Positions 3,732 to 46,202 of a DNA stretch of 46,202 bases are shown here, one piece after another. Source of the DNA: a phage; assembly GCA_025043315.1 (NCBI GenBank), contig GCA_025043315.1_4324.1; one strand, 5' to 3'. A model generated the notes under the pieces. It worked only from the letters and a program-made list of their open reading frames with translations. It was not told the origin of the DNA and did no database searches. Within the stretch, counting starts at the first letter, position 1, and each line of letters starts with the position of its first letter. The translations under genes were made by a program, and so were the position numbers.

Positions 3732-3761
3732 TTCTCAATCTCTCGTTGTGTTGATGTGGTA

Positions 3762-3804
3762 ATTATATGCCATCCGTGGCGACTGCGTTTAGCAATTCGT
3801 GCTA
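3762..3804 (-). promoter_or_regulatory. palindromic promoter module (TAGCAATTCGTGCTA 3790-3804; TATAAT at 3762-3767)
   Basis: 15-bp palindrome, 22-bp spacer, -10 hexamer, conserved leader CCACATCAACACAACGAGAG before ATG of 3543..3731. Confidence 0.6.
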
Positions 3805-4391
3805 TTTATAGAATGACTTAACAAAAGCCTCAGGTGTTACACCACGCTTGCAAGGCTTAATTAAATCCTTAATGATGAACCAGTGGAAAGTCTTCATATC
3901 AAAGACCAGTCGTTCACATGCGATCACATATTAAGTGAAGCTCATTCTTTCTTCTCCCGTTCCATCCACATTTTAGCCAGCTCGTAATAAGCTATCGCCT
4001 CCTCGACCTTTTCAGCTTCATCCTGCATTCTCTTACACCACTGGCTTGGTGATTCGTAGTTATCCATTAGTAAATTATAACCTCATCTTCTGAAAGGTAG
4101 ATATCCTCGCCATTCTTGTTCTTTACGATGTAGCAGCTACCATCATCACTCATCTCTGCGAAGAACACATCGCCACGCTGAATTAGCGCCACATAATCAC
4201 TCTCGCCAACATAAACAATCTTAATCATAGAATCACCTTACTTAAATTATCGTTCGTTAGAATGCGTTTTAGCGTCGTCTACGCCTGCCGAAATTATGTA
4301 GATAGTGGCGAAGCCTAGAGACCAAAGCAACCACGGTAGAGCCTCAACAAAAACATCGCCCATCATTAACTCCGTGTGCATATCGTTTACC

Positions 4392-7204: not shown

Positions 7205-7540
7205 TGGGGGCGTTACGCGAAATGGCACGCTAGCTAAGCTATAGCTCAATGTAGTTTCGTGTCGTGCGTGTAACGAGGTAAATTGGCTAGATGGCTCCAT
7301 AATGGCTAAATCTCACATAAAATAGCAACAATGTATTCTGATGGGAAAAAACATATAGATATCGCCGGGACCCCCGTTACACGACTTACATACAATAATA
7401 ATAATAATAATAATAATAATAGAAAGAAGATATATATATATATTAAGCACTTATAGCGTAAGTCAGGGCGTATCTGCGCGTAACTAGCGTAACGATAGGC
7501 GCTGGCTTACATCGCGCTACGTCGGTTACGCGTCAGCTCA
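7205..7540. promoter_or_regulatory. regulatory region A: GTTACG-type repeated boxes, (AAT)9 at 7394-7421, (AT)7 at 7430-7443; homologous to region 25515-25850
   Basis: shared blocks AAATGGCA, AGCTATAGCTCAATGTA, AGGGCGTAT, ACATCG-N-TCGGTTACG with region B. Confidence 0.55.
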
Positions 7541-7791: not shown

Positions 7792-8340
7792 ATGGATATG
7801 AAGATTGATAAAGATGAATTGCGTCACGAAAGCGCACTGATTGGTCGAGTTAGTGACCCTGAAATTTGGAATTCGATATTTGAATATGATGGGGAAAACC
7901 TAATAAGAAAAGCAACAACATCAAGTAGAGCGAGGGCTGGAGATGTTGTGGGGTGCCTTGATAGGGGTTACTTAACTGTCAGGTTCAATAAAAAGCTATA
8001 CTTTGTTCATAGGATCGTATGGGAAATGCATAATGGACCCATTCCTGATGGAATGTATATTGATCACATAAATCACAAGAGAGATGATAACGGATTGGTC
8101 AATTTAAGGCTTGTAACAAGAATTGAAAATCAAAGAAACATGTCAATTAGCAAAAGGAATAGTAGCGGCTTTGTTGGTGTCTCATGGAGTAAGGTGCACA
8201 ATAAGTGGGAGGTTAGAATAGGAGTGGGGAATGGCACGAAAGACATGTATTTAGGAAGATATGATGCCATTGATGAAGCAGTTGCAGTTAGAAAGAAAGC
8301 GGAGTTAGATATTGGGTATCACAAAAATCACGGAGAATAG
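7792..8340 (+). CDS. HNH homing endonuclease with AP2-like DNA-binding domain
   Basis: HNH-type motif IDHINHKRDDNGLVNLRLVTRIENQRN, then SSGFVGVSW...KWEVRI; paralog of 18683..19213. Confidence 0.75.
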   Translation: MDMKIDKDELRHESALIGRVSDPEIWNSIFEYDGENLIRKATTSSRARAGDVVGCLDRGYLTVRFNKKLYFVHRIVWEMHNGPIPDGMYIDHINHKRDDNGLVNLRLVTRIENQRNMSISKRNSSGFVGVSWSKVHNKWEVRIGVGNGTKDMYLGRYDAIDEAVAVRKKAELDIGYHKNHGE

Positions 8341-8581
8341 ATATGAAAATTCGCTGCACCAATTGCATTACAAGTACCGACAAAAAGTGTTAACACCGTT
8401 CGTTAAAGGCTCTGTATACGACGCTGAGCCGCTAATCATTAACGGCAAGACAATCCCGAACGAATGGGTTATTAATGGTGCTGAGCGACCGCACAAGCAC
8501 GATTCTGGATGGATTGCCATTGCAGGCTGGAAGGTTGGAATGTTTATCCCTGGAATTGCAACTTTTGACGAGGTGAAATGA
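8312..8581 (+). CDS. hypothetical protein, start uncertain (TTG in track; GTG at 8386 possible)
   Basis: ORF overlaps HNH 3' end; no convincing SD. Confidence 0.3.
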   Translation: MGITKITENRYENSLHQLHYKYRQKVLTPFVKGSVYDAEPLIINGKTIPNEWVINGAERPHKHDSGWIAIAGWKVGMFIPGIATFDEVK

Positions 8582-18682: not shown

Positions 18683-19213
18683 GTGTATATGAAAGTTAAT
18701 GATTTTGTTTATGTTGACGATGAATTTAAATTAAGATGGAAGAGTAGAGGTGTTGAATTCTTCAAAACAGAGAGGTCATCAAAGATCTGGAATAGTAGGT
18801 TTGCAAACAAGGAATGTGGATACATTAGGGATGACGGCTATCTTTCTTTTGAGTTCAATGGTCGAGCATACAGAAATCACAGGGTGATATGGGAAATTGT
18901 AACTGGTAATGAAATAGATGATAACATGGAGATTGACCATATAGATCATAATACAACAAACAACAATATTGAAAACCTTAGACTTGTTGACAGGAAAGAG
19001 AATTGCAAAAACCAATCCATGATGCCCCATAACTCGAGTGGCTTCACAGGTGTTCACTGGTGGTCAGCAAGAAACAAATGGAGAGCCCGCATCGAATGTG
19101 ATGGCAGAGTGAAAACAAAAACATTTGAAGACTTTAATGACGCTGTCGAGTGGAGAAAAGAAATGAACATAAATCTTGGCTTTCACAAGAATCATGGAGA
19201 TAAGAAAAAATGA
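18683..19213 (+). CDS. HNH homing endonuclease with AP2-like domain (second copy)
   Basis: IDHIDHNTTNNNIENLRLVDRKENCKN, SSGFTGVHW...KWRARI. Confidence 0.75.
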   Translation: MYMKVNDFVYVDDEFKLRWKSRGVEFFKTERSSKIWNSRFANKECGYIRDDGYLSFEFNGRAYRNHRVIWEIVTGNEIDDNMEIDHIDHNTTNNNIENLRLVDRKENCKNQSMMPHNSSGFTGVHWWSARNKWRARIECDGRVKTKTFEDFNDAVEWRKEMNINLGFHKNHGDKKK

Positions 19214-20133: not shown

Positions 20134-20156
20134 CCTCCTTCGGGAGGTTTTTTTAT
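20133..20156 (+). terminator. rho-independent terminator (CCTCC-TTCG-GGAGG plus T7)
   Basis: hairpin 20135-20148 then T-tract. Confidence 0.7.
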
Positions 20157-20181
20157 GCATTAAAGATGATACAATCCACTT

Positions 20182-20196
20182 TAGCAATTCGTGCTA
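20182..20196. promoter_or_regulatory. palindrome TAGCAATTCGTGCTA without the usual -10/leader, upstream of tail fibre gene
   Basis: exact palindrome core; no TATAAT-like hexamer at the 22-bp position on either strand. Confidence 0.4.
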
Positions 20197-20221
20197 AACA
20201 ACAATATAGGAATTGATTATT

Positions 20222-25177: not shown

Positions 25178-25524
25178 TTTTGTAACCCCACGATGATTTC
25201 GATATGCTCTTTAGTTGTCTTTTCTATTCTAATTGATTTATTTTTCCAGTCTTCACCATATGATGACTCGCATAATTTAAGAGCTATTTCGTAAGTTAAC
25301 CCAATAAAAACCGGAGCATAGCTAGGTAGTATTACGGTGTGAGCTGAGTATCTATCTATTTTCTTTCCCATTTTCGTATCTCTTTGGTTGTTTGCTTTCG
25401 ATGAGGTAACTATATATTCGCAAGTGCAGCCAGTCCAATTGGTTTCGCCAATCGTTGATTCAAACTTACGCGTGAATATTTGTAATTCCGTGTAGGCATT
25501 GCCACTTGTTACGTAAAATGGCAT
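25174..25524 (-). CDS. hypothetical protein (start uncertain)
   Basis: 116 aa ORF whose ATG lies inside conserved regulatory region B. Confidence 0.4.
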   Translation of the reverse strand: MPFYVTSGNAYTELQIFTRKFESTIGETNWTGCTCEYIVTSSKANNQRDTKMGKKIDRYSAHTVILPSYAPVFIGLTYEIALKLCESSYGEDWKNKSIRIEKTTKEHIEIIVGLQK

Positions 25525-25850
25525 CTAAGCCCAGCTATAGCTCAATGTAACCGGCGTGTATATCGTGTATATCATTTATTGCTGATGGTGTATTGGTATA
25601 GCTGCCGCACAATACTGTATAAATCCACATGATATTAAAATTATAACCGGAACACTCTATAGAAGTAGTTACATGATATACACAGTAATATATATAATAA
25701 TAATAATAAGAGTAAAATGTTGATATATATAGATATTTTAATGTAACTAATGCGTAAATTGGCGTAACAGGGCGTATATCATTTTCCGCGGATGAGATTG
25801 TATACATCGAGTTACATCGGTTACGTGTAACTGTGATTTGTGGTGAATTT
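25515..25850. promoter_or_regulatory. regulatory region B, diverged homolog of region A, with short (TA)n/(AAT)n tracts
   Basis: shared blocks with 7205-7540; GTTACG boxes; AT-rich simple repeats at 25680-25730. Confidence 0.5.
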
Positions 25851-25859
25851 GGCGATAAA

Positions 25860-25902
25860 TAGCACTAATTGCTAAAGGAATCTGACTGTCTTTAGGTATA
25901 TT
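25860..25902 (+). promoter_or_regulatory. palindromic promoter module (TAGCACTAATTGCTA 25860-25874; TATATT 25897-25902)
   Basis: 22-bp spacer. Confidence 0.55.
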
Positions 25903-26004
25903 TATGCGCATGGCGGCAATGGTGTCGTCATACAACCTGAATTTCAGGCTTAACATCAAATCATGACCCAAATTTGGGTCATGAAAAACAGAAGAGAGAT
26001 TAAA

Positions 26005-26244
26005 ATGAACTTAGCCTTACTTAATGAAGATGTAAAAATGAATAGTTATGATTTTTTGAATAATGTTGTCAACCCAGCCAGAGAGGTGGCAGGAGAGTCA
26101 AAGCTGCGTCACAACTGGTTTCTTGAAAAAATTGTGGATGAGATTGGTGCTGAAAATTTGTGCTACCGAAAATCGGTAGCGCAAAATACGAGCAACCAAA
26201 TGGCAAGGAGTCAGAAAATTGATACTGTAGATTTAAACATGTAG
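26005..26244 (+). CDS. N-terminal part of a Rha-like regulatory protein, ends at in-frame TAG
   Basis: AREVAGESKLRHNWFLEKIVDEI resembles the Rha-domain core as I recall it; start chosen at third ATG with AGAGAGATTAAA leader. Confidence 0.4.
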   Translation: MNLALLNEDVKMNSYDFLNNVVNPAREVAGESKLRHNWFLEKIVDEIGAENLCYRKSVAQNTSNQMARSQKIDTVDLNM

Positions 26245-26247
26245 CAA

Positions 26248-26673
26248 ATGCTTCTTGTTGGAATGCGTGAGTCAAAGGCAGTTCGCCTAGCGGTTCTTGA
26301 TAAGCTTAAGCAGATGCAGGCCACCATTAAAAAACAAGCAGAAGTAATCAGCCAGATGGTAAGTATTGATGAACTAAAAGAGGCGAGAATGATGCTTGGT
26401 GTAGCTAATGCGCAGAATGCACATCTTAGCCAGCGCATTGTTGCAGAGCAAAGAATAAATGAGATCTTACTCATGGATAAGAATACCGATGAAAAGCTCG
26501 ACATGCTGGCTTGTGAGGCTCGCCAGTGCTGGGTTAGCCGCTCTGATGAGATGGAGGAAAGATTTAAGTATGAAGTGCAATGCTTCGCTCTTAAAGAAAA
26601 GACGGACGCACTGACCGGATTAATTGAGAATGAGCTAGGTATTGATATTAAGCTGTTGCTCGAAAAGAAATAG
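26248..26673 (+). CDS. C-terminal part of the same Rha-like reading frame (141 aa), in frame with 26005..26244 across TAG-CAA
   Basis: same frame as upstream ORF, separated only by TAG at 26242-26244 plus CAA. Confidence 0.45.
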
Positions 26674-26713
26674 CACTAATTGCTAAACACTGGTCGCAAG
26701 GATGCGATACTAT
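26671..26713 (+). promoter_or_regulatory. palindromic promoter module (TAGCACTAATTGCTA 26671-26685; TACTAT 26708-26713)
   Basis: 22-bp spacer; leader TACTCCATCGAAACGAAACGAAC. Confidence 0.6.
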
Positions 26714-26753
26714 TACTCCATCGAAACGAAACGAACTTACTAAGGAACATAAA

Positions 26754-26999
26754 ATGACTAACTTAATCAAATCAGTAATCATCGCCGCAGCAGTAATCAT
26801 GGCAGTTGGTTGTTCTTCCGGTCCTCGCCCGGATGGTTGGTGTGCAACCCAAGCAAACGGCGTATGCGTGGCTAAGTGGGAAGGCGGTGTAGTTGTTCCG
26901 GCTGGTGAGCTTGATGTTCGCTACGCCGGAATTGAAAGCAAGGCCGGAGGCGGTTACGGTGGGTCAGTTGCAGATCATGGTTCTAAGGAGTGGAAATAA
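26754..26999 (+). CDS. small lipoprotein (candidate superinfection-exclusion protein)
   Basis: signal peptide plus lipobox MAVGC; 81 aa. Confidence 0.7.
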
Positions 27000-27992: not shown

Positions 27993-30900
27993 TTACCACA
28001 CTCCAACTACCACTCTTCCTCCGTTCGGTAAGTTTACAGTGATTCCGTTATTGTTAATCTGGACCGTGTTATTAATTCCGTTAAATGCGAAGTTACCATT
28101 ATTGGCATACAGGTTACCCCTTACAGTGGCGTTATTAAATTCCGCACTTCCTGACTTGTCAATCGCCCATCCTTGAGAGCCAGCAACGTAGTTGTTAGAT
28201 TGAATCCTGTTACCAATCTTCGCGTTAGTAATTGAGCCATCGCCAATTACCGCGCTTTGGATGATTACGTTTCCGTTCTCTACAACGAAGGGGAGTTGCC
28301 ACTGACCGGAACCAGAACCAATGCCGTTACTGATTGCGAATCTGTTTGCGTCAAAAATGAACTGACTGCGAACGTTTCCACCAGTGCCAACTAGCTCCAT
28401 GCTCATGCCGGATGAATAAGTCTGACCATTGTATTTCAGGCCAAGGCTAATTCCGTACTGCACGCCAGTTGATGTGGCATTAGAGAATGCGTCTAACTTC
28501 TGGTTTAGAGCCGCCTCGTTTTCGCCAAGTCTTGCTGATAGAGCCGTGTCTGCAGTAGTTCTTGCTTCTGTCTCTGTGGCTAATGCAGTCTGAACTTCTG
28601 TAATCGACGATACAACTTCATCATCTATCTGTGCTTTAAGGGCTGTTAGAGCCTCTACGCGCGCCTGAGTTTCATCTGCTATGAGATTAACTGCCTGAAC
28701 ATATTCAGCCTTACGTTTGCCATTCTCCTTTGTCATTCTGCGAACATCGCCATCATTAGCCAATGCGTTCTCGATAATTGCCTCGGCTTGATTCTGAATG
28801 TCCTGGTTTTTCTCAATTGCATTCTGCTCGAGATATTTGAATCCTTCAGAACCCTCGATATCAACCTTGATGTAATCATTGATGATGTTGGCGTCGTCAG
28901 TACTCATGCCCCTAGCGAAATAAGACCAATCAGAGGTATTGCCAATTCTGTCAATCAATCTTGCACGATACCAAATGACCTTGCCTGGTTGAATCGGCGC
29001 GTGCCAGTATTCATAGGCTGGATAAGGCAGTAACGTCAGCAAACTTGCGTTATCAGGATTATAAGTACCGTCACCATTATCAGGAACCTGCTGAAGTTCA
29101 GTGTAAGCAGTATCACCAGATCCTTCAGGAAATCCCCATTTAACACGGATGCCAAATACTTCATCAGTTGATGCAGTGATAACTGTAGGCGCAGATGGGC
29201 GGCCAATCTTACCAGTTAGCGATACAGTTACAATGTCAGACCAGGCAGACACGTTTTCAGTATCTGATACGCTGCGAACCCTAACGTCATAGATTCCTGC
29301 GTAAATACCTTCGATATCAACCTCTGTGCTAGCTGTTCTGGGTACGTTAATCCAGTTGCCATTCTCTTTTCTCCACTGAACATTGTAGGTTTTTGCGTAT
29401 GGAGCTTTATCCCATCCGATAACCATCGTCTCAACTGATAAGCCTTGAACAACCTTACTGTAGCTTGACACTGTTAAATTCTCAGGCGGCGACAATCTGT
29501 CAGGCTCTACGATTGAAGTCGGACGATCAACAATGTTAACGCCGTAGTCAATCTCGTCATACTTGTTAGGGTCATACTCTACTGCGGTAATTGTATACTG
29601 GAATGAGTCCGAGCCGTCGGAATCCGCTTTTTGAATCCCGGTCACAACATACTGCTGAAGCGCCAGATTATCCTTATCGATTGCGAATACAGTATCAGGC
29701 TGAGCTACAAAGCTGAAAGCTGTGTTCAGGTTAATCGTCCTACCATCATCAGATACGCTTGCAATGGTTCTTGCCTCCGGACTTCCGTCAGGCTTGTTCA
29801 GAAGAATTCTGTCACCAGGCTCTGCGTCAACTTTAAACGGGGTAAAAACCTGCAATCCCTGAACTGATTCAATACGACCGGAAAGGTTTAACTGATAGTT
29901 GCTGGACCATGCCGCGTCATTGACCGCAATAACCTCACCAATCATCGGAATCATACCTTCCAACCCGGTAGTGAAGCTGATAGTTTCGCTTCTTAGGTTG
30001 GTTTTCAGGAGCCATCTTCCGCGTCTGTTTGCTTCACTTCTGCGAGTACATCCAATCGCAGTTAAATCTACAGGGTTAAATCCAAAACGACGAGTTGCCT
30101 CCAGCTCGAATACTGTCTCAACATCCTGCTGATAGTTGTTCTCCACATCATCAAACTGAACGTTTGCGGTAGTGTAAAGACTTTTATCACTGGCAAATGT
30201 GCGGCTGAATAATCCATTAACGACGTTATCATTCGTGAAGATGTAAGATGGATTACGAGGTTTGTCGACAACAATACCAATCTTTTCGCCATCGTAGAAA
30301 GTTAAGCCACGGAAGATTGAGCAGATATCACGAATTAGTGTGTAGGCCTCAACTTTATTCTGGACAACCATGTCGCATAGATATCGCGGCTCCATACCAC
30401 CCTTACCATCTGGAACCATCTGGTCACAGAATTGCGCGGCTTCATACAGGCCCCACTTATCAATCTCTACACCCAACTCTCGCTGATCAAGACCGTAGCG
30501 GCGGTTTGTCACTAAGTCATAAAGAACCCACGCAGGGTTATTTGACCATGCCATTTTAAATAGACCATTCCATGTGCCACTATAAGTTCTGCTTTCAGGG
30601 TCATAGTTTGTAGGAACCTGAATCAACTTCCATCGCTTCTTGATAGAGATTGTCGGGATACCGTTAGGAAAAAGGTCAGAGCCAAACTCAACGTAAACAA
30701 GAGCCGTAAGCGGATAGCGGAATTTAGCGTCGATTACTTCCTGATAGGTTGTAATCTGCATCCCGTTTACCAGCGTGCTACTTGTCGAATCTGGCGTAAT
30801 CTTACGGATACGAACCAGGGCGCTATCAAATTCAGCCGGAAGGTTTACACGAATGCTGCGGTCGTAACCTGTAGTTGTCTTCCCGTTAGCAACTCCTCGA

Positions 30901-31418
30901 GTATATTCCTGGTAAGCGCCACCATTAACAGAAATGTCTATCGCGTACTCGCATGTGGTTCCGTTCAGATCGCCATTACTTTCTTGCTTAACCAGCCTAG
31001 GCCAATATAGCTTTACACGAATCGCTGATAGCTGAGTATTGTTAACCGCAATGATGTACGGGGTATCGTTCGTGATTTCTCTGGAGGCCTGAATCTCTGA
31101 GTTAGCACCATCAAGCCCAGCGATATAGTCCTGATACTGCGTACCAGCACGGAACTCAGCGCGAACACCTTCATAGTTGTAGCTACCATCCTGATTTTGT
31201 ACCGGAACGTCAGCAAGGTATAAATCCTTCATTGAGAAGTTTGAATCTACCTCTCCGTCAGCGACAGCAAGCAACACCTTAACCTTGTTTAATGAAATAA
31301 GGTTGTCTTCTTGCTCCACTGGTTGATGCGGCTTCTGACTACCACCCTTAGCACCATAAATCTTAATATCTTCAGCCATATCACAAAGCCTCATGTTTGT
31401 TTTGATCATTTGTGCCAT
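27993..31418 (-). CDS. tail tip / central fibre protein, lambda J-like
   Basis: 1141 aa; segment GAKGGSQKPHQPVEQEDNL resembles the lambda J N-terminus as I recall it; follows I, K, L, M; true start may be ATG at 31379. Confidence 0.8.
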   Translation of the reverse strand: MAQMIKTNMRLCDMAEDIKIYGAKGGSQKPHQPVEQEDNLISLNKVKVLLAVADGEVDSNFSMKDLYLADVPVQNQDGSYNYEGVRAEFRAGTQYQDYIAGLDGANSEIQASREITNDTPYIIAVNNTQLSAIRVKLYWPRLVKQESNGDLNGTTCEYAIDISVNGGAYQEYTRGVANGKTTTGYDRSIRVNLPAEFDSALVRIRKITPDSTSSTLVNGMQITTYQEVIDAKFRYPLTALVYVEFGSDLFPNGIPTISIKKRWKLIQVPTNYDPESRTYSGTWNGLFKMAWSNNPAWVLYDLVTNRRYGLDQRELGVEIDKWGLYEAAQFCDQMVPDGKGGMEPRYLCDMVVQNKVEAYTLIRDICSIFRGLTFYDGEKIGIVVDKPRNPSYIFTNDNVVNGLFSRTFASDKSLYTTANVQFDDVENNYQQDVETVFELEATRRFGFNPVDLTAIGCTRRSEANRRGRWLLKTNLRSETISFTTGLEGMIPMIGEVIAVNDAAWSSNYQLNLSGRIESVQGLQVFTPFKVDAEPGDRILLNKPDGSPEARTIASVSDDGRTINLNTAFSFVAQPDTVFAIDKDNLALQQYVVTGIQKADSDGSDSFQYTITAVEYDPNKYDEIDYGVNIVDRPTSIVEPDRLSPPENLTVSSYSKVVQGLSVETMVIGWDKAPYAKTYNVQWRKENGNWINVPRTASTEVDIEGIYAGIYDVRVRSVSDTENVSAWSDIVTVSLTGKIGRPSAPTVITASTDEVFGIRVKWGFPEGSGDTAYTELQQVPDNGDGTYNPDNASLLTLLPYPAYEYWHAPIQPGKVIWYRARLIDRIGNTSDWSYFARGMSTDDANIINDYIKVDIEGSEGFKYLEQNAIEKNQDIQNQAEAIIENALANDGDVRRMTKENGKRKAEYVQAVNLIADETQARVEALTALKAQIDDEVVSSITEVQTALATETEARTTADTALSARLGENEAALNQKLDAFSNATSTGVQYGISLGLKYNGQTYSSGMSMELVGTGGNVRSQFIFDANRFAISNGIGSGSGQWQLPFVVENGNVIIQSAVIGDGSITNAKIGNRIQSNNYVAGSQGWAIDKSGSAEFNNATVRGNLYANNGNFAFNGINNTVQINNNGITVNLPNGGRVVVGVW

Positions 31419-31428
31419 TCTACACTAA

Positions 31429-31452
31429 ATAAAAAACCCGCACTAGGCGGGT
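31429..31452 (-). terminator. terminator-like hairpin between I and J (CCCGC-ACTAG-GCGGG plus T-run)
   Basis: stem 31437-31451 with A-run 31429-31436. Confidence 0.45.
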
Positions 31453-31459
31453 ATGATAT

Positions 31460-32032
31460 TTAAGCAATGTCTTCACTATATGAACCAGCCGAAAACACAG
31501 AGCCGCCAACCGTTCGATAACCATATGGAAGGCAAACCGGATAACCAGCGGCTACAGTGTTCACAGCCGAGCCGAATGCGTAAGAGGCGCGGTTGCTTGT
31601 TTTGTTGCTCTGGGTCTTTAATCCAGTCGCTTGCGGCGAGAGTAATTGAGCAATACCGCCAGCAGCCAGAGAAACACCAGCGCCAACAAGATAAATCTGC
31701 CCGGTAAAGATGCCAACCGTGATAAGAGCGGCGCCTAAAATAGTCTGAAAAAGCCCGCCAGACTTACGGCCTTGAGGGATTGGTAAGATGCGTATCTCCT
31801 GAACGGCACTAAAATCAGCTATTCGATGCTCGTTCACATTTTTACCATCCACAAAAATAGCATATCTGCTGTTTTGACCTACATGGCTATTCATGAACTC
31901 CTTGAACTCGGGGATCTGTGAGCAAAGTGCCCGCATAGCTTCAGGCACGCTATTCACTGCCATCTGGTGAATCTTTCCAAACCTGCGGCCTAGAGATAGG
32001 CCTAACTTAATATCAATCAGTTTCTGGGTCAT
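31460..32032 (-). CDS. tail assembly protein, lambda I-like
   Basis: 190 aa, hydrophobic Gly-rich C-terminal half; position between K and J. Confidence 0.7.
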   Translation of the reverse strand: MTQKLIDIKLGLSLGRRFGKIHQMAVNSVPEAMRALCSQIPEFKEFMNSHVGQNSRYAIFVDGKNVNEHRIADFSAVQEIRILPIPQGRKSGGLFQTILGAALITVGIFTGQIYLVGAGVSLAAGGIAQLLSPQATGLKTQSNKTSNRASYAFGSAVNTVAAGYPVCLPYGYRTVGGSVFSAGSYSEDIA

Positions 32033-32771
32033 AAATTACATCCTCAGGTAAATTCTTATGGCGAACGATCCGCACTGTACGCTCTCGCCAGTAATCGGAA
32101 TAGATATCAATGGAACTCATTTTACCATAAAGATGGTGAATGAATCTGTTGTTGCCAATGTATATTCCAGCGTGGTTTGTTACCTCACTCTGCACCTGCA
32201 TCATAATCATTGAGCCAACCGGGGTGTCTGAAGTTTTTACCAGCTCAAATCCTTCCTTAATCCAGTTGTCGTCATAGATATTTTCATTGTACCGTTTCTC
32301 CCACCACGGGTAATTAACTCGGTAGTCATTCAGTTTGACACCGTATTTCTTGTGGAATTCCATCACAAGCCCCCAGCAATCAAAGCTACCAAGCCCCCAC
32401 GGGCGACCAATCAGTGGCATAGATGATGGCTCAAGGATGCGCATATCTCCCTCCGGAATGCTGACGATAACATAAGGAATCTCGCACTCGTTGCAGCTGC
32501 AAATATCCGCTGGGCTAGGTCTTGTTGTTGCTCCGTCGCCTGTGTGAGAGTGAACTACATAAACAATTGACTCGTTATCAACCAGATTAAATGCAATGTC
32601 GGCATACTCATTCGAATCAAGGATGAACTCATTCTCAGGGTCTTTGCTGGCATTTGTGATTCTGTGATACTTCTGCGCCCGACCCTTTTGGGTGACAACG
32701 CCACAGCATTCGTGCGGGTAAACTTCCTTTGCGTGCTGGAAGATTTCCAGCTTAACTTTTGGTGTTAACAT
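32013..32771 (-). CDS. tail assembly protein, lambda K-like (JAB/MPN plus NlpC/P60-like)
   Basis: HECCGVV and HSH motifs; start moved to ATG 32769-32771 with GGAGGT SD (track TTG start runs through a T-tract). Confidence 0.75.
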   Translation of the reverse strand: MLTPKVKLEIFQHAKEVYPHECCGVVTQKGRAQKYHRITNASKDPENEFILDSNEYADIAFNLVDNESIVYVVHSHTGDGATTRPSPADICSCNECEIPYVIVSIPEGDMRILEPSSMPLIGRPWGLGSFDCWGLVMEFHKKYGVKLNDYRVNYPWWEKRYNENIYDDNWIKEGFELVKTSDTPVGSMIMMQVQSEVTNHAGIYIGNNRFIHHLYGKMSSIDIYSDYWRERTVRIVRHKNLPEDVIYDPETD

Positions 32772-32829
32772 TTTACCTCCAATAAAAAAGGCCAACCTTT
32801 CGATTGACCTAGTTTAACACTAATTTAGT
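32772..32829 (-). terminator. hairpin/T-tract/SD cassette, copy 2
   Basis: minus strand AAACTAG-GGTCAA..TTGGCC-TTTTTTATT-GGAGGTAAA-ATG. Confidence 0.5.
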
Positions 32830-33195
32830 TTATTCAAAATAAACCTCAAAATCTATAAATACTGAAGCACCATTGGATTTAAGCTCCTCAGCCTCAATCA
32901 GCTTTTCATCAAATAATGACTTAGTAACATCAATCCAATTCATTCTATATTTCATCTTTCCATCATGCGTATCACTTAAAAGATTGAATCCCACATCATT
33001 AAGTTCAACTCGTGAAAAGTTGTAATAACTATCATGGAGCATGCTGGTAAATTTTACAGTTTTACCATCATCATCCCTAACCTGATAGTAACGACCTGAG
33101 TCATCAACATCACAGGCGTAAGCTTCACCAACAGAAAATAAACCTTCGCATTCTTCTTTGTCTTTCTTGTATCCGTTAAATTTAATGTAGAACAT
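32830..33195 (-). CDS. hypothetical protein inserted between L and K (moron candidate)
   Basis: own promoter module upstream and hairpin cassette downstream; start at ATG 33193-33195 with GAGGAG SD. Confidence 0.5.
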   Translation of the reverse strand: MFYIKFNGYKKDKEECEGLFSVGEAYACDVDDSGRYYQVRDDDGKTVKFTSMLHDSYYNFSRVELNDVGFNLLSDTHDGKMKYRMNWIDVTKSLFDEKLIEAEELKSNGASVFIDFEVYFE

Positions 33196-33223
33196 TTTTA
33201 ACTCCTCTCGTTTGTGTAAAGTA

Positions 33224-33266
33224 ATCATACTCCATCCGTGGCGACTTCGTTTAGCAATTCGTGCTA
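33224..33266 (-). promoter_or_regulatory. palindromic promoter module (TAGCAATTCGTGCTA 33252-33266; TATGAT 33224-33229)
   Basis: about 55 bp near-identical to the copy at 3762-3804. Confidence 0.6.
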
Positions 33267-33267
33267 T

Positions 33268-34023
33268 TTAGTTCTGATTCGCTTTGGACTGAAGGCTAGC
33301 CGCAGCGCATCCACCAAATGAAAGCTGATTATTCTCTCCAAATCTAAGCTTGCAACTGTTAACAGTTCCTGCGCAGAAGTCTAATGATGGATCGCTTACC
33401 GGTTTATCATCCTTGTCAAAATAACGATTACCAGCATAATCACAGCCATTACCGCTACGATACCAGCCCCTAGAAGCCCAGTAGCAAACAGACTGAACAA
33501 GTCTCGCAGGAATATAGATACCATCCATATCCATAGGGCTACTTAGCTCGAATGACGCCGTCTTGTAATCAACCTGCTTCGGTCGCTCAATGAAGTAAAC
33601 AAATCTGCGATAGTCACCATCAGCAATGCTCCCGTCTTCATTGATGTTATCTCGCGTAGTAATCCAGATGGTAACCTTAGCTTTAACAAGTCCGTTGTAT
33701 GTGCGAATCAATGCGCTGATACGCTGGTCTACGTTTGATACTGTTAGCGTCACTTTGTTGGCTTTGCCGTCAGAGGTCATATTGATACCCGAGATACCGA
33801 AAGGTCTTGGTCCATACTCTTCTCCGCGAAATGTAATCGTCTTCTCTGGTAGTGGCTCGCCATTCATCTGGGCCAGCATAATCTCTTCTGGTGTGTATGA
33901 AATGTTCTCATTGTGGAAGTTGTAAACGAGACTTCCAAAGGAGGTTCCGTCAACCTGGATTAGTGTCACAATCTCGCCAGGGAAAAGGCTTTGCAGCTGA
34001 TTTTCAAACTTTGGACTTAACAT
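33268..34023 (-). CDS. minor tail protein, lambda L-like
   Basis: start moved to ATG 34021-34023 (track TTG 34035); position between M and K. Confidence 0.75.
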   Translation of the reverse strand: MLSPKFENQLQSLFPGEIVTLIQVDGTSFGSLVYNFHNENISYTPEEIMLAQMNGEPLPEKTITFRGEEYGPRPFGISGINMTSDGKANKVTLTVSNVDQRISALIRTYNGLVKAKVTIWITTRDNINEDGSIADGDYRRFVYFIERPKQVDYKTASFELSSPMDMDGIYIPARLVQSVCYWASRGWYRSGNGCDYAGNRYFDKDDKPVSDPSLDFCAGTVNSCKLRFGENNQLSFGGCAAASLQSKANQN

Positions 34024-34061
34024 GATTTTCTCCAATAAAAAAGCCCCTAATGGGGCCTAGT
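34024..34061 (-). terminator. hairpin/T-tract/SD cassette, copy 3
   Basis: minus strand AAACTAG-GCCCC-ATTA-GGGGC-TTTTTTATT-GGAGAAAATC-ATG. Confidence 0.5.
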
Positions 34062-34412
34062 TTAACGCATTGCGCTAAAGACTTCCACGAATTGCATGCT
34101 CACAGTCTGAACATCCTTACTGAGTGGTGTAACGCTAATGCTATCCTGCTGAATAACAAACATTGATGTATCACCCTGCGGAGTGGTCCAGAAGAATGGA
34201 GTGATGATGTGGTTGAAGCAGAAATTCATCACATCGCGCCAATCCTTGTTGGTGTAAGTCATCTGGTAGCTTCTGGTGTTGCTCCTGTATCCACCCGCAC
34301 CCCTTTGGGTGTAACCATTGCCGAAGCTAACAATTCTAGCATTGTTTGTGTTAGAAAATGCAGCCCCTCCGTTTTGGATTTGCGTGCACCAATTAAAAGT
34401 ATCAATAGCCAT
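34062..34412 (-). CDS. minor tail protein, lambda M-like
   Basis: 116 aa ORF immediately downstream of tape measure. Confidence 0.7.
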   Translation of the reverse strand: MAIDTFNWCTQIQNGGAAFSNTNNARIVSFGNGYTQRGAGGYRSNTRSYQMTYTNKDWRDVMNFCFNHIITPFFWTTPQGDTSMFVIQQDSISVTPLSKDVQTVSMQFVEVFSAMR

Positions 34413-34442: not shown

Positions 34443-37418
34443 TTAGTTGAATCCACGAAGGTAAGCATACGCCCTGCCGCCCTGCTGGAAAGACTGAGCA
34501 ATCTCTTCCGCTACGATTGCCTTGACGCCGTTTTGCAATGCTTTAGCTTGCTCTGGGTCGCTACCCACCCCCGAGTTTACGTTAACAGTGATTCCGCTAA
34601 CATTAACATCCGTTCCACCAGAAACCAAACCGCCACTTGCATAACCAGATGGACCACCAACCGCGCCGCCGTTTGCATATCCCTTCATTAGAGCGTAAAG
34701 GTTTTTTACGCCAATTCTGCTAGTCGCTTCTTTTGTGAATACGAACTCACCGCGGTGTACCGTTCCTGCTGGCTGATACTTACCACCATCACCAGTATAG
34801 CCGCCGCCAGCAAAACCTATGGCAGATGCAATTGAACCAATAGCACCACCTGTGCCACCGAAGCTACTTAAGCTAGACTCGATAGCCTTGACAACAAGAA
34901 GCTGAGTTGCAATCTTGGCGATCTGCTTAAGAATGTTAACCGTGAATTCCCTGAAATTAGTCTCGCCAGTTGTTACAAGGTTTGTAATCTGGTCGGTAAT
35001 ACCTTCAAAGACCGTTGTGGTTAAACTTCCAGCAATTGAGAATGCATCCGTCGCGCTCTCAGCCCAATTAGCAAAGGATTGATTCACGCCAGCGAGCCAG
35101 TTTTCACGTAGCGCATCCTCCTGAGCATAAAAGTTACGTCTTGCTTCGAGAAGTTGCGCGAAATCTACGTCATCAAGAGAACCACCAGCATTAACCTGAT
35201 TGGACTGAAGAGCCTGAATCTCTTTGGCTCTCTGCTGCTCCCGAGAAGACAGGCCAGCACCCAAATTAATATTGCTTGCCTCATTGTTAATCTGAAGAAT
35301 CTTCTTGCGGTTATCTTCAGCTAACTTATTGGCACGCTCCTGCAAAACAATCTGATCGCCTAACTCAGCTTTCTGCCTTGCGAGTGCAAGAACTTTATCC
35401 TTCTCAATGAGAAGTCTTGCTTGCTCTTTGGTAATTGAGCCATCAATTTGCCTCTGCTCAAGAATCTGGAATTTAGCCTCTTCCTGAAGGTACTGCTTGC
35501 GCTCATTACTTATTACTGCGCCAATATCCCTGTTTTCCTGAAGTACCTTTAGTTGAGCCTGAAGTGCCAGCACGCCAGATTCGTAACCAATTGTAAGGTC
35601 TCTTTGCTCTTTAGCCCTACCATTTTCTTCTTTCCTGCTCTTCTTGATCGCATCAAGTTCATCCTGAAGCGCCTTCTTCCTTTTTGCAAACTCCTCATCA
35701 GTACCTGACTGCTCATTGGAATTCTGATTTTCCCTGCGTGTAACGTAACCAAGTTCTCCTTCTCTGATTCTGGCATCTCTCTCCCTGATAGACTTCTCTA
35801 GCTCAAGGTTTTGCTTCTTGGCGGCATCGATAATCTTCTGCTGACTCTTGATTACATCATCACCGACACCATCAAGGCCTGGGATATTCTGCAATGCCTG
35901 AGTTGCACTAATTACAAACTCACCAATCAGCGCGTCACCTTGGTTAATGAAGACCTTAATCTGTTCAATTGTCCCGGCTATTACATCAACAAACAGGTTT
36001 AGAGCCCCAACCGTTCTGCGACTAATTGCATCCCATACATCAGATATGTACTTCCTGAAGTCACTCCAGGCCAATTCAAGAGGAGTAAGCTGGGCTGCAA
36101 TATCGTTAAGGTTTGCTTCCTGTGATTTGCTAAATATATCAATGGCAGCAGTTACGGCTTCAACCTCACCCCTAGTCTCTCTCAATCTTTCAATTGTTGT
36201 TAACTGCCCCTGTGTAAGGAAGTTAAACCTCTTGTCTAAATCAGCAAGTCCTTGAATTGGGTCGCTCGCAATCTGGTTATAGTAACCAGTAATCTCCTTC
36301 GCATCCCTACCTGTCAACTGCGCCCATCTGGCGGTTGATTTGGTAATCTTGTCAATCTGAGTCAGCGTAAGGTTCCCTTGCTCAATAAGGCTTGTTGCGA
36401 TGCTAGTCACAAGTCCTCTTGTAGCACCAGTAGCGTCAGAAACAGAGCTAACCAACTCTCTAACCTGCGAGATTGATGCGATTGTAGAGTTGTTGGAGAA
36501 TGCAATCGCAGAATTTAATGCTCTGAATTCACTCTCTGCCTGAGCGGCACCGATACCGAGAGCAACAAGTGCCCCACCCAAAACGCCAACAGCAACATTG
36601 AATGGATTTAAGGCTGCGAGCGCGAATCTAAAGGTGTTACCAATACCTCCAAATGCATCCTTAATTTGTCCGCCTTGCTGAATTGCAATAAGCCAAATCG
36701 GAATGCCGCCAGCAAGTGATGTCCCAATATCTGTAATCTGCGCTGGCAATTGAGAGATTGCAGCCTTGTATTGACCTGCGCTTAATCCTGATTTCTGAAA
36801 AGCCTTACTCTGAGCAATTAACTGGGTGTTTGCCTTCTTTGATGCATCGGCGATTCTGTCAATAATAGGCGCCGCCTGAGAACTTACGCCAAGCTGAGCA
36901 GCTTGTAGCTTAAGATACTCCTCACGCGTCAATGTTGCCGCTTGAGCCTGACGCTCAAGTGATGCAATGAACCTATCCGCTTCAACCTTTGCCTTTGCCT
37001 TATCCTTTGCAGCTTGCGCTGCCGCTCTACCCTCTTCAGTTAGCGCCGCACGTGAACGAGCAAGTTTTGCGTTCTGCGTTTCAAGAGCCTCACCTAAGCG
37101 GAAAAACTCCTCATCAGGAACAACGCCAGCTGCGAATGCCTTATCAAGACCTACTGCCGCCTCCTGAAGTTTACGGAATTTTGCAGCCGTTGGGTCGATA
37201 GCTGTTTGCAACTTAGCCAGAGATGCTTTCTGCTCAGCCAGTGCGCGAGCCGTATCTCTAGCCTGGGTTTTAGCAACCTGCTCGGCATTTACGAACTCAC
37301 TAATCCCAGAGGCAGCCTGTTGGTTGGCCTGTCTGAACTTTTGCAGGGATTGCGTGCCCCTATCGACTTGCGAGACGTCTACGGCTAGTGTGATTCCGGC
37401 TAATTCATTTGTTGCCAT
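34443..37418 (-). CDS. tail tape measure protein
   Basis: 991 aa, long Ala/Gln/Glu-rich coiled-coil region, Gly-rich C-terminus; follows G/GT chaperones. Confidence 0.85.
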
Positions 37419-38127: not shown

Positions 38128-38376
38128 TTACTTAGTGTTTTCTTTTGCAATCTTAGTAGCTGAGTCCTTACAAACCTCTTTGCCATATTTCATGATTTGA
38201 TCAACTTTGCCACCCACAAGTTCCTGGCATGCTCGCTCAGCTTTAGCAAACTCAACAGTATATTTGTTTGCCTTGCTGTTTGCATCGGCATCGCCAGTTG
38301 GGTTGACAATCTGAACTACTGCATAAAAAGCAACCAGAACCGCAGTAAGCTTGATGATGTTTTTAACGTTATTCAT
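38128..38376 (-). CDS. small secreted or membrane-anchored protein (moron candidate)
   Basis: N-terminal hydrophobic signal IIKLTAVLVAFYAVVQI; own promoter module upstream. Confidence 0.5.
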   Translation of the reverse strand: MNNVKNIIKLTAVLVAFYAVVQIVNPTGDADANSKANKYTVEFAKAERACQELVGGKVDQIMKYGKEVCKDSATKIAKENTK

Positions 38377-38409
38377 TTAATTAATCTCTCATTTCGTTTC
38401 GATGAGTTA

Positions 38410-38452
38410 ACTATACAGGAAGATTGGATTAACGCTTTAGCAAAAAGTGCTA
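38410..38452 (-). promoter_or_regulatory. palindromic promoter module (TAGCAAAAAGTGCTA 38438-38452; TATAGT 38410-38415)
   Basis: 22-bp spacer; leader TAACTCATCGAAACGAAATGAGAGA. Confidence 0.55.
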
Positions 38453-38455
38453 TGC

Positions 38456-40000: not shown

Positions 40001-40364
40001 AAGTAGCCACCCTACGAAGGATTGGTCTATATCCAACAACTGTGCCGGTTGGTTTTACAGGTCGCGGGTCAACAACAACGAAAGTCTCACCATCAACCTT
40101 AATCTGATAACCCTGATTAATTTCCACCTGTGCCGTGAAGATTCCGCGTTTATCGCCAAACTGGATAAACTCACCATCTATATCGCGCGTCTTGATTTCT
40201 CGCACTAAGCCTTTTAACTGGAATGTTTGCGCTGGCACTTCTACCTCAACGCCGTTAACGATTTCAACATATCCAGCGCCAGTACTCATTTCATAAACGC
40301 CATTTGCATCACTAAAGAAGTTAATGCCAGCTCGAGTAATTGATTCGATTTCGTTGTAGTTCAT
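39993..40364 (-). CDS. putative head-tail joining protein
   Basis: start moved to ATG 40362-40364 (MNYNEIESI...) giving ATGA overlap with upstream gene. Confidence 0.4.
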   Translation of the reverse strand: MNYNEIESITRAGINFFSDANGVYEMSTGAGYVEIVNGVEVEVPAQTFQLKGLVREIKTRDIDGEFIQFGDKRGIFTAQVEINQGYQIKVDGETFVVVDPRPVKPTGTVVGYRPILRRVATYG

Positions 40365-40762
40365 CGGCAACCACACCCACCGCCACCAGCGGAAGTAATC
40401 AATCCAAATCCACCGCCTTTCTTGCGGAGCAGTGCTTTGTACATACGGCCCCATGAGGAAGATGATAAATCACCCTGGATTGCTGATTGGTTATCATATG
40501 TGATAGAGAACTCACCGCTCAGTGCATAACTTGCCATTCTACGACTGTATGTTTCCAGGCCTTCATTCTCGCCCTTAAACGCGCCATCAGCAAGCATTAG
40601 GTGCAGCGCGTAAAGGCCAACAGCCTTATCTTTGTCTGCTCCAAACTTGCTTTCGCATACATATAGACGTGCCAAATCAATCCATACATTAATTGCTTCG
40701 TCATCCACCGCTTTAAGCGCAGGAACAAGAGAGCGCATAAACGCCAAAATTGCATCATTCAT
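40361..40762 (-). CDS. putative head-tail connector / packaging-associated protein
   Basis: start at ATG 40760-40762 with GGAG SD (track TTG 40777); Gly-rich C-terminus. Confidence 0.4.
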   Translation of the reverse strand: MNDAILAFMRSLVPALKAVDDEAINVWIDLARLYVCESKFGADKDKAVGLYALHLMLADGAFKGENEGLETYSRRMASYALSGEFSITYDNQSAIQGDLSSSSWGRMYKALLRKKGGGFGLITSAGGGGCGCR

Positions 40763-44421: not shown

Positions 44422-45150
44422 TTATGATTCCCAATCTGGAACCGACCAGCAACGACAACCGTATTCTTGACCTGGAAATATATCGTTACCACCTAGTTTA
44501 AAGCTAAGGCCCTCTCTCGCTATATGCGATTGGCGCTCCCTATCGTCCAGCATGCCATGCCAGATGTAACGGCTAACACCAGCATCCTCAAGCCTGCGTC
44601 TCATAAGTGTGGAATTCAGACTTGAAACAATCCCAGACGCAATGTTTGCCGTTCGCTTCCTGTAGATTTTGTACCTATCAGATAGCTTAACGTAGTCACC
44701 ATTCTGTATTGTTGCAGCCGTCTGCAAGAAATCATCTTTAATGTTATTCAGTAATTTAATCGCTGACTTATTAGTGGTGTAAATCCACTGATTTAGGTCA
44801 TCATTATACCAAGGCTCATCACCATTGATGCCGTTAACATCAAGGTTCATAACGCTAGGATTGGACCTTCCTCCGGTCTTTATTGCAAGCACAAGAAATT
44901 GCGAGCTATTGTATCTGTATATAGCTGCACCTATGGCTGGGATGGTTGATATAAATGAAGCCACCAGCGCCGCAATTATCCCGTCAAGATATCCATCCTC
45001 TTCCTCCAGTTCCTCTGCAGTATCAATTTTAAGTCTTGTTGCTGATTCCCTCATTGCTGAAATTAGCTCAGTTACCGCAATGCTAAGATTGCGGTTTACC
45101 TGACTCTCAATTGTCTGTGGGTACTTCCAGCGGGTCATTACTGGTTTCAC
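44422..45150 (-). CDS. minor head (head morphogenesis) protein, Mu F / SPP1 gp7-like
   Basis: C-terminal ...QEYGCRCWSVPDWES with CRC motif; immediately downstream of portal. Confidence 0.6.
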   Translation of the reverse strand: MKPVMTRWKYPQTIESQVNRNLSIAVTELISAMRESATRLKIDTAEELEEEDGYLDGIIAALVASFISTIPAIGAAIYRYNSSQFLVLAIKTGGRSNPSVMNLDVNGINGDEPWYNDDLNQWIYTTNKSAIKLLNNIKDDFLQTAATIQNGDYVKLSDRYKIYRKRTANIASGIVSSLNSTLMRRRLEDAGVSRYIWHGMLDDRERQSHIAREGLSFKLGGNDIFPGQEYGCRCWSVPDWES

Positions 45151-46202
45151 TAATTGTCACCTCTGTTTCTACTGAACCGTCACTAATCTTAACCTCTGGA
45201 GCGATTGTGCGCAATGTATCTCTTGCCTCATCAATATCCATAGCGCCAGCTGCAATTAGTGTCGCAATGCTGTTTACATTCTTCTCCAGAATCTCTGCTT
45301 TGTCCTTGCTTGATTCCTGTGCCAGAGGGTTAAACTCAACTGACCATTCGTCAACGTTAACAATGAACGGGATTAAGAACTCAAGAATAGGAAGCAGTTC
45401 AGAGTTACGTTTGCGGTCAACCAGCTTATGGAATGTCTCAAGCGCTGTATTCTGGCTTGAAGATACGCCTCCGACGTTCTTGTTCTTCAGGATGATTTCA
45501 TGAATGCCGCTCAGCGCAACGATCCTGTCAAACTTCTTATCCAGGAACGAATCAATCCCGCCAATGTCAGAGTTCAGAACGCTATACTCTTCAGATTCCG
45601 CGTCAATGCCAATCGCCTGACCAACGCCGCTATTGTTATCAACCTGTGCTAGGCGCAACCTTGCAGCACCAAATCCTTCACTATCATCACATAACTCAGC
45701 CAGATTTTTGGCTTTCCATACCGCCTGCTGCTTGCGCTTCAGTAACTGCGTAGCAAGTCGTTCACAGTTGGTGTAATCCTTAATTGAGTCAAGAATATCA
45801 CTGGATAGAACGCTGCGGCCCCACCCATCATTTTGCCGACGCATTACGTTAGGAATTCGCTCGCCATCGATGATATGAATTCGGCTGTAATGCACATCGT
45901 AAAACATATCGCTTTCGTTTGTGGTGATACGATAGGTTAGCGGCTTGCCAAAGCGCGCGTTGCGTGGGTTCTCCTCGCGAGTTTGTACTTTTACTTGTGT
46001 GCGGTCGTAAACACGGACAGTTTCAAGTTCAGCGCCTTCTCTGACCGGGCTTGTTAGCGCTCTATTATCCTTAACGATAGCGACAATGGCAGAGCCACCG
46101 AATAATCTCGCCCATGACCAGGCATCGTTAATATTCTGCGTCATTTCTAGGTCATCCCAGCGTGACCAGAATGCAGGTTCGTCATCAATACCATCAATGT
46201 GG
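45107..46202 (-). CDS. portal protein, 3' part (runs off the right edge)
   Basis: 345 aa from first ATG but frame stays open upstream to the window end. Confidence 0.65.
   Translation of the reverse strand, partial: HIDGIDDEPAFWSRWDDLEMTQNINDAWSWARLFGGSAIVAIVKDNRALTSPVREGAELETVRVYDRTQVKVQTREENPRNARFGKPLTYRITTNESDMFYDVHYSRIHIIDGERIPNVMRRQNDGWGRSVLSSDILDSIKDYTNCERLATQLLKRKQQAVWKAKNLAELCDDSEGFGAARLRLAQVDNNSGVGQAIGIDAESEEYSVLNSDIGGIDSFLDKKFDRIVALSGIHEIILKNKNVGGVSSSQNTALETFHKLVDRKRNSELLPILEFLIPFIVNVDEWSVEFNPLAQESSKDKAEILEKNVNSIATLIAAGAMDIDEARDTLRTIAPEVKISDGSVETEVTISETSNDPLEVPTDN

Follow-up and report, generated by a model that had tools for sequence, protein, structure and literature searches.

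A T1-like coliphage genome was found to carry, between tail genes L and K, an inserted cassette built around a 121-aa open reading frame (ORF121). The arrangement and comparison of the sequences suggest that this cassette is probably an autonomous accessory-gene unit, that is, a moron in the Hendrix/Juhala sense with a putative promoter of its own, residing in a virulent phage. It consists, in order, of the 21-nt repeat aaATAGCACnnnTTGnTAAA, the -10-like hexamer TATGAT, a short leader containing GGAG, ORF121, and a hairpin followed by a T-run. The preliminary description of this DNA had recognized in it the layout of a moron, with promoter, gene and terminator inside a late operon, and this proposal is supported by the absence of the insert in relatives, by its foreign composition and by its discordant divergence; promoter activity was inferred from the geometry of the upstream elements.

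Genome context and anatomy of the cassette

The window, that is, the whole stretch of 46,202 nucleotides that was analysed, is a complete and circularly permuted T1-like siphovirus (Drexlerviridae) coliphage genome, and the phage is virulent. The portal gene seems to be split by the window ends (1-130 and 45107-46202, minus strand): its ATG, together with a hairpin-RBS element, lies near position 130, and the reading frame picks up at the other end of the window. Because this frame spans both ends, the window looks like a whole, circularly permuted genome. An identical ORF121 protein is on record in one contig only, which was deposited under E. coli, and the nearest cultured relatives of the phage are BEK6 (~90% identity) and ACG-M12, SU57 and the Veterinaerplatzvirus group (85-90%). 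Elsewhere in the window, two non-coding stretches (7212-7453 and 25508-25737), both intergenic and situated between divergent gene blocks, share a 42-nt repeat that is 81% identical, along with AT-rich AATAATAAT.../TATATATA runs; these stretches could be origin or packaging-related sequence.

The genes of the tail region are as follows:

34443-37418, minus strand: tape measure protein
34062-34412, minus strand: M (PF05939)
33268-34035, minus strand: L, minor tail / tail-tip protein L (Pfam PF05100, E 2e-46)
32830-33195, minus strand: ORF121, 121 aa, between L and K
32013-32771, minus strand: K, JAB/MPN and NlpC/P60 tail protein of 252 aa (Pfam PF14464 and PF00877)
31460-32032, minus strand: I (PF06805)
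27993-31418, minus strand: J

The lambda-like M-L-K-I-J order given in the preliminary description was confirmed, with M, L, ORF121, K, I and J in sequence on the minus strand. The phage also encodes a 157-aa protein named 'transcriptional regulator', a homologue of phiEB49 gp22 / SU57_00052. The start of K was placed at ATG 32771, as inferred from relatives, and the TTG at 32795 that appears in a mechanical listing was dropped in its favor. K, I and J are without a promoter module of their own; since K has none, its expression must come by read-through of the putative terminator of the cassette, the parts of which are located as follows:

32781..33267, minus strand: whole inserted cassette of 487 bp, from the L stop codon to the K RBS, as aligned with the empty site of vB_EcoS-12210I
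33249..33269, minus strand: 21-nt Drexlerviridae direct repeat aaATAGCACGAATTGCTAAAc, which contains the inverted repeat TAGCA-N5-TGCTA
33224..33229, minus strand: -10-like hexamer TATGAT, 38 nt after the A of ATAGCAC
33196..33220, minus strand: short leader, conserved in every cassette of the family (..CACAAACGAGAGGAG..), with the RBS GGAG at 33205-33202, 6 nt before the ATG
32783..32810, minus strand: intrinsic-terminator-like hairpin AGGTCAATCGAAAGGTTGGCCT followed by TTTTTT, directly before the K RBS

The first two A's of the 21-nt repeat are part of the TAA stop codon of L. A 121-aa ORF between L and K had been described beforehand, and it was found as stated on the minus strand (33195->32830), with its ATG at 33195-33193 preceded by GAGAGGAG at 33209-33202 and with a first stretch of residues, MFYIKF, that is common to the homologues in BEK6, ACG-M12, SU57 and phiEB49. 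A longer ORF of 132 aa that begins at 33228 was rejected because its start lies within the -10-like element, lacks an RBS and does not recur in the homologues.

Downstream of the gene, the hairpin (32810-32789, followed by T6) forms a stem of 9 pairs, for which the RNA free energy is -14 kcal/mol and the z-score is -3.3, and an Rfam scan of the cassette region gave no match. The hairpin cassette of the preliminary description is therefore present, but its layout of hairpin, T-run and ATTGGAG turned out to be a generic intercistronic element. An element of the form TAAACTA(G/A)G-hairpin-T6-ATTGGAG-ATG also occurs on the minus strand at the TerL-portal (128-171) and M-L (34021-34064) junctions, and a hairpin with a T-run is also located at the I-J junction (31436-31452). 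Because similar hairpins part essential late genes at these three places, late-operon transcription must read through them. The 3' end of the cassette (32781-32822) shares the 'GTTAAACTAGG...TTTTTTATTGGAG' frame, with a different stem, ~20 nt past the ORF121 stop; it resembles a copied M-L junction and may mark where the cassette was first assembled.

Distribution, lateral exchange and the ORF121 product

Comparison of the L-K junction in related phages, which the preliminary description had proposed, resulted in a clean pattern of presence and absence, in which a 10-nt junction is set against the 487-bp insert. In vB_EcoS-12210I, the empty junction reads TAAGGAGAAATAAATG, with L and K located 10 nt apart and flanks that are ~90% identical; in the alignment, L...GTTAA is joined to GGAGAAATAAATG...K, and the same was observed in dozens of near-identical Veterinaerplatzvirus records. 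The insert is present at the L-K junction in the window and in about 10 relatives. The gene is far from universal at this position, as the insert was covered in only 10 of the 760 phage records with similarity to the L-K region, and a tblastn search found an ORF121 homologue in only 15 records. The L-K junction is a hot spot for inserted cargo, which in other phages consists of HNH endonuclease genes (JulesPiccard and Sf12) or an oppositely oriented Rha gene (IME253).

Members of the ORF121 family were found at two further junctions, and cultured carriers include Bas01 (AugustePiccard), Bas03 (JulesPiccard), ACG-M12 and SU57. JulesPiccard has a homologue between M and L, which comes with the repeat, the leader and the GGTCAATCG hairpin of the cassette. 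The Opt-79 group and SU57 have more distant paralogues between TerL and portal that carry the same module. The similarity of these paralogues to ORF121 amounts to 37% identity for Opt-79 and an hhalign probability of 96.4% (E 1e-9) for SU57, and the paralogous subfamily is present at TerL-portal in 27 phage records (e.g., SU57 7980-8385; phiEB49 40316-40522; Opt-79 1639-1995). Both paralogues, at L-K and at TerL-portal, are present in SU57, G8, ACG-M12 and phiEB49; the window itself has no gene between TerL and portal. In phiEB49, ACG-M12, ECH1 and SCS31, the match to the TerL-portal copy falls into two pieces, and its annotated length in phiEB49 is 68 aa, which suggests decay. The module is located 70-75 nt before the ATG at every complete family locus examined (10 phage genomes and 5 metagenomic contigs), and at one further locus, cut by the contig end, the -10 and leader are still visible. 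The terminator hairpin is likewise found beside the gene in JulesPiccard, at M-L, and in every L-K cassette. Since both the promoter-like module and the terminator were present with the gene in each family member examined, the three parts travel as a unit across three junctions, L-K, M-L and TerL-portal.

The composition and divergence of the cassette also set it apart from its neighbors. ORF121 has a GC content of 33.6% and a GC3 of 28.7%, compared with 44.8-48.2% GC for L, K and I. Between the window and phiEB49, dS is 0.17 for ORF121, 3.6 for L and 1.9 for K, and the sliding identity is 85-97% in the cassette versus ~70% in the flanks; against ACG-M12 the pattern is reversed, with 85-92% in the flanks and 50-80% in ORF121. 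The dN/dS of ORF121 is ~0.5, compared with 0.02-0.04 for L and 0.04-0.10 for K, so that the gene is under purifying but relaxed selection. Taken together, the composition, the relaxed selection and the divergence discordant with the flanks indicate that the insert is a laterally exchanged unit. By part, dN/dS is 0.3-0.7 in both folded domains of the product and ~1.4 in the linker only, and the values below 1 in both domains indicate that ORF121 is a real gene.

The product is a hydrophilic protein of 121 aa (14.2 kDa, pI 4.6) in which no signal peptide or TM segment was found. A structure prediction had also been proposed in the preliminary description, and AlphaFold (pLDDT 75.6) gave an SH3-like barrel (~1-64), a disordered linker (66-78) and a beta-beta-alpha-beta C-terminal domain (81-121); when modelled alone, the C-terminal domain had a pLDDT of 91.8. 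The C-terminal 45 aa are nearly invariant across close homologues (38-89% identity) and still recognisable in the most distant members, and some members keep these 45 residues with an N-terminal domain that is different or duplicated. The family is phage-only and comprises 44 clusters at 90% identity. When 1.84 billion representatives were searched with a profile, 15 clusters at 50% identity were obtained, one of which, the 923-aa protein P0053, was rejected as a spurious repeat match. ORF121 matched no known family in Pfam or NCBIfam, the latter having no model for the family, and a search of PDB sequences with the family profile gave no match either. PADLOC, which covers defence and not anti-defence proteins, gave no ORF121 match at E <= 1, and in a Foldseek search of viral models all matches were to further small phage proteins that are likewise uncharacterised. 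The SH3-like small barrels FeoA and Gp54 of phage Bas11 (PDB 9axb) were considered as possible fold relatives of the N-terminal domain; Gp54 is a small beta-barrel protein that is not essential and that triggers CapRelSJ46 (PMC11578894).

The database label of the family points in a different direction from the moron reading. ORF121 belongs to PHROG 14592 (E 5.1e-37, full length) and is 85% identical to phiEB49 gp37; the label for the family in PHROG 14592 and RefSeq is 'virion structural protein', which RefSeq applies to phiEB49 gp37 and its paralogue gp57 but not to neighbouring unknowns, which are left unnamed, and the authors of SU57 used 'putative tail fiber protein', by similarity. These labels favor the alternative that ORF121 is an optional virion protein, either at the tail tip or packaged, that is made mainly from late-operon read-through, for example a decoration or adaptor protein with the conserved C-terminal domain docked and the variable barrel facing outward. 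It is consistent with the location of every known insertion site of the family within the morphogenesis operon and with the build of the family, in which 45 conserved residues at the C terminus are joined to interchangeable N-terminal domains. We nevertheless consider this alternative unlikely. The trail of the label ends at the RefSeq entry for phiEB49 gp37, the original GenBank entry reads 'gp37' only, neither the GenBank nor the RefSeq records hold an evidence note, and a literature search combining the structural label with EB49 gave no match; the product may be associated with virions if mass spectrometry in Battaglioli et al. 2011 is the basis of the label. Close relatives build their tails without ORF121, and virion proteomics of the JK06-like phages AHP24, AHS24, AHP42 and AKS96 detected seven structural proteins, none of them from an L-K junction gene (PMC4070988). 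The dN/dS of ORF121 is 5-25 times that of L and K, the TerL-portal paralogue in phiEB49 and ACG-M12 may be decaying, and ORF121 has a promoter-like module of its own, unlike every core structural gene in the window.

In terms of function, the best explanation of the data is that ORF121 is a small acidic cytoplasmic two-domain protein that would be dispensable for virion assembly. Our best guess is that it acts as a host-interaction or anti-defence accessory factor, because it is small, acidic, cytoplasmic and sporadic, with frequent paralogues, relaxed selection and lateral exchange.

The 21-nt repeat as a putative promoter module

Copies of the repeat were counted over the whole window with the pattern ATAGCACNNNTTGNTAAA and at most 1 mismatch. 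This resulted in 16 copies, compared with 0.01 expected by chance, and all 16 are oriented toward the next gene, on either strand:

Repeat sites 1-8: 3805 (minus), 4649 (minus), 5403 (minus), 6125 (minus), 7726 (plus), 9088 (plus), 9634 (plus), 15638 (minus)
Repeat sites 9-16: 18134 (minus), 18619 (plus), 20197 (minus), 23819 (minus), 25859 (plus), 26670 (plus), 33267 (minus), 38453 (minus)

The preliminary description had presented the palindromic module upstream of ORF121 as a near-identical copy of the sequence at 3762-3804. The resemblance is genuine, with 92% identity over 50 nt between 33221-33270 and 3759-3808, and so is the inverted repeat TAGCA-N5-TGCTA, but the module is more than a pair of copies, since it occurs 16 times in the window.

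The geometry of the copies is nearly constant. A TATAAT-like hexamer (at least 5/6 match) is located exactly +38 from the A of ATAGCAC in 12 of the 16 copies and at +39 in one more, against a background of 0.39% per position (binomial 2e-26). In 13 copies, the start codon follows the repeat motif at a distance of 69-83 nt, behind a leader of the form CATCGAAACGA / CACAAACGAGAGGAG, and the two A's before ATAGCAC are usually the end of the TAA stop of the upstream gene. The copy at ORF121, AAATAGCACGAATTGCTAAAC at 33269-33249, has the ATG 72 nt past the A of ATAGCAC and matches the TLS-type repeat. With the hexamer taken as the -10 element, the inverted repeat TAGCA-N5-TGCTA would be centred near -42, which corresponds to a class II activator position. 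TTGCTA within the repeat was rejected as a -35 element since in every copy 22 nt separate it from the -10-like hexamer.

Some copies depart from the common form. In several (e.g., 9634+, 6125-, 23819-, 4649-), the 20-nt spacer or the -10 region lies within a hairpin, the arms of which differ between copies. The copy at 25859-26010 (plus strand) has a ~145-nt leader with the hairpin ATCATGACCCAAATTTGGGTCATGA and an ATG at 26006, and the copy at 20150-20197 (minus strand) lacks a -10-like hexamer and precedes a terminator-like hairpin.

The genes headed by the module in the window are small unknown ORFs, two HNH genes, a DNA helicase, an Erf-like recombinase and a lipoprotein, and none of the core morphogenesis genes in the window is headed by it. 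In the structural region of the window, the module is found at two places only, before ORF121 and before an 82-aa membrane ORF, and in that of SU57 it is likewise found at two places only, both before members of the ORF121 family. The 82-aa ORF (38128-38376) is basic, has an N-terminal hydrophobic segment and lies between the major tail protein and tail chaperone genes; it belongs to a second moron-like unit (38128-38453, minus strand) with the repeat at 38436-38453, a -10-like TATAGT and a leader. The GC content of this unit is 40%, versus 45-50% in its flanks, and the 82-aa ORF occurs in 82 phage records; SU57 lacks it at the corresponding junction. The two HNH endonuclease genes (PHROG 99; 7798-8340 and 18689-19213, both plus strand) are each headed by the module. 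The module-headed lipoprotein of 81 aa (26670-26999, plus strand; lipobox AVGCSS, PHROG 4281) lies just past the end of J on the opposite strand, and its position and type would fit Cor-like superinfection exclusion.

A 21-nt direct repeat, aaATAGCACnnnTTGnTAAAA, was previously described in phage TLS and was also stated to occur in T1, Rtp and Rogue1; its describers left its function open, with a stoperator, an enhancer site or an UP element as proposals (PMC11447400). The repeat of the window is the TLS repeat, with an identical consensus, the same orientation with the downstream gene and the same distance of ~73-76 nt to the start codon. Three features have no counterpart in that report: the hexamer fixed at +38, the way in which the repeat abuts the stop codon of the gene before it, and the link to mobile accessory ORFs in the structural operon. 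A search for Drexlerviridae transcriptomics gave a single candidate paper, which is an RNA-seq study of a T5-like, not a T1-like, phage.

The proposals made for TLS lead to a second alternative, in which ORF121 is a real accessory gene but the repeat is an operator, stoperator or enhancer and not a promoter, ORF121 is expressed only from the late polycistronic transcript, and the hairpin is an RNA-stability or attenuation element. The TLS authors found few canonical sigma-70 promoters (PMC11447400), and the ORF121 module has no -35 hexamer at 16-18 nt spacing from its TATGAT, was not called by a standard sigma-70 promoter scan, and has its TTGCTA too far from the -10-like hexamer. Hairpins like that of the cassette, which part essential late genes, cannot be strong terminators of late transcription. 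The rigid spacing of the hexamer and the constant distance to the start codon are, however, predicted by a promoter and not by an operator alone; all copies face the downstream gene on both strands; and the repeat heads divergent or isolated units (helicase, Erf recombinase, lipoprotein) for which there is no other candidate promoter. We therefore regard a role other than promoter as improbable.

It is highly improbable that the cassette is a selfish or neutral passenger, spread by junction-repeat recombination or by hitch-hiking on homing-endonuclease conversion tracts: HNH genes do occur at the same junctions (TMP-M in ACG-M12 and phiEB49; L-K in JulesPiccard and Sf12), and the sporadic distribution and the dN/dS that is high relative to the neighbours would suit it, but both folded domains are under purifying selection, the C-terminal domain can still be recognised in the most distant homologues, ORF121 has no HNH, GIY-YIG, LAGLIDADG or other nuclease domain (no nuclease match in Pfam or PHROG and no nuclease fold), and no HNH gene lies beside the cassette in the window.

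Proposed expression of the cassette and comparison with known systems

If the cassette is an autonomous unit, then host RNA polymerase would start at a bipartite promoter composed of the 21-nt repeat near -42, which is probably activator-bound or UP-like, and the -10 hexamer at the fixed 38-nt offset. The transcript would start ~7 nt downstream of TATGAT, and a ~20-nt leader with a strong RBS would drive the translation of ORF121. Transcripts from the module would end at the intrinsic terminator just before K, and late tail-operon transcripts would read through this terminator to express K, I and J. With both its own module and late-operon read-through, ORF121 would be made on the schedule of the module as well as late. 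The cassette is swapped horizontally as a unit among Drexlerviridae and lands at intergenic junctions of the morphogenesis operon (L-K, M-L, TerL-portal).

The moron concept is said to go back to Juhala et al. in 2000 and to Hendrix, and morons of lambdoid phages include lom and bor in lambda and gp15 in HK97. The ORF121 cassette is similar to the lambdoid morons in that an extra gene with its own promoter-like element, an intrinsic terminator and a distinct base composition is located between two conserved late genes that adjoin each other in relatives. It differs in three respects. The phage is virulent and has no prophage state for expression, so that the classical moron rationale of prophage expression does not apply; the promoter module is the family's own repeat and not a generic sigma-70 promoter; and the cargo is cytoplasmic and acidic, and not a membrane or surface protein.

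The PeSL (promoter-early stem-loop) cassettes of T4-type phages, reportedly described by Arbiol et al. in 2010, are said to be units of promoter and stem-loop that bracket small novel ORFs. The ORF121 cassettes are similar to these in the repeated promoter and stem-loop units around small ORFs and in the apparent modular shuffling between sites and phages. In contrast, the two have no relationship in sequence, in phage family or in promoter type, the ORF121 cassettes are located in a late operon whereas PeSLs are located in early hyperplastic regions, and repeat recombination in the ORF121 cassettes is deduced from the cassette boundaries. A broader reading, which we put forward tentatively and regard as doubtful, is that the 21-nt modules of Drexlerviridae may be portable expression units for accessory ORFs, similar to T4 PeSLs, and that the ORF121 family may be a fast-evolving arms-race effector, possibly an anti-defence factor or a defence trigger similar to Bas11 Gp54, which might even be a packaged component of virions in the case of ORF121. 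The stop-codon abutment and the hairpin-T6-ATTGGAG element would then permit precise shuffling of ORFs among late junctions and between subfamilies.

T1-like phages are widely used (e.g., in the BASEL collection) and are common laboratory contaminants, yet neither their transcription signals nor roughly half of their small genes have been characterised. The locus shows an unexplained 21-nt repeat that would act as the front of a promoter of fixed geometry and that moves together with accessory genes. The locus further establishes a very small protein family restricted to phages, for which 1.84 billion representatives contain some dozen genuine clusters at 50% identity, and it flags a propagated database label without traceable evidence. 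As a family that seems dispensable, evolves fast and passes laterally between phages, the ORF121 family fits the pattern usual for genes of host interaction or anti-defence. In summary, the ORF121 locus does not overturn current understanding and provides a clean, testable example.
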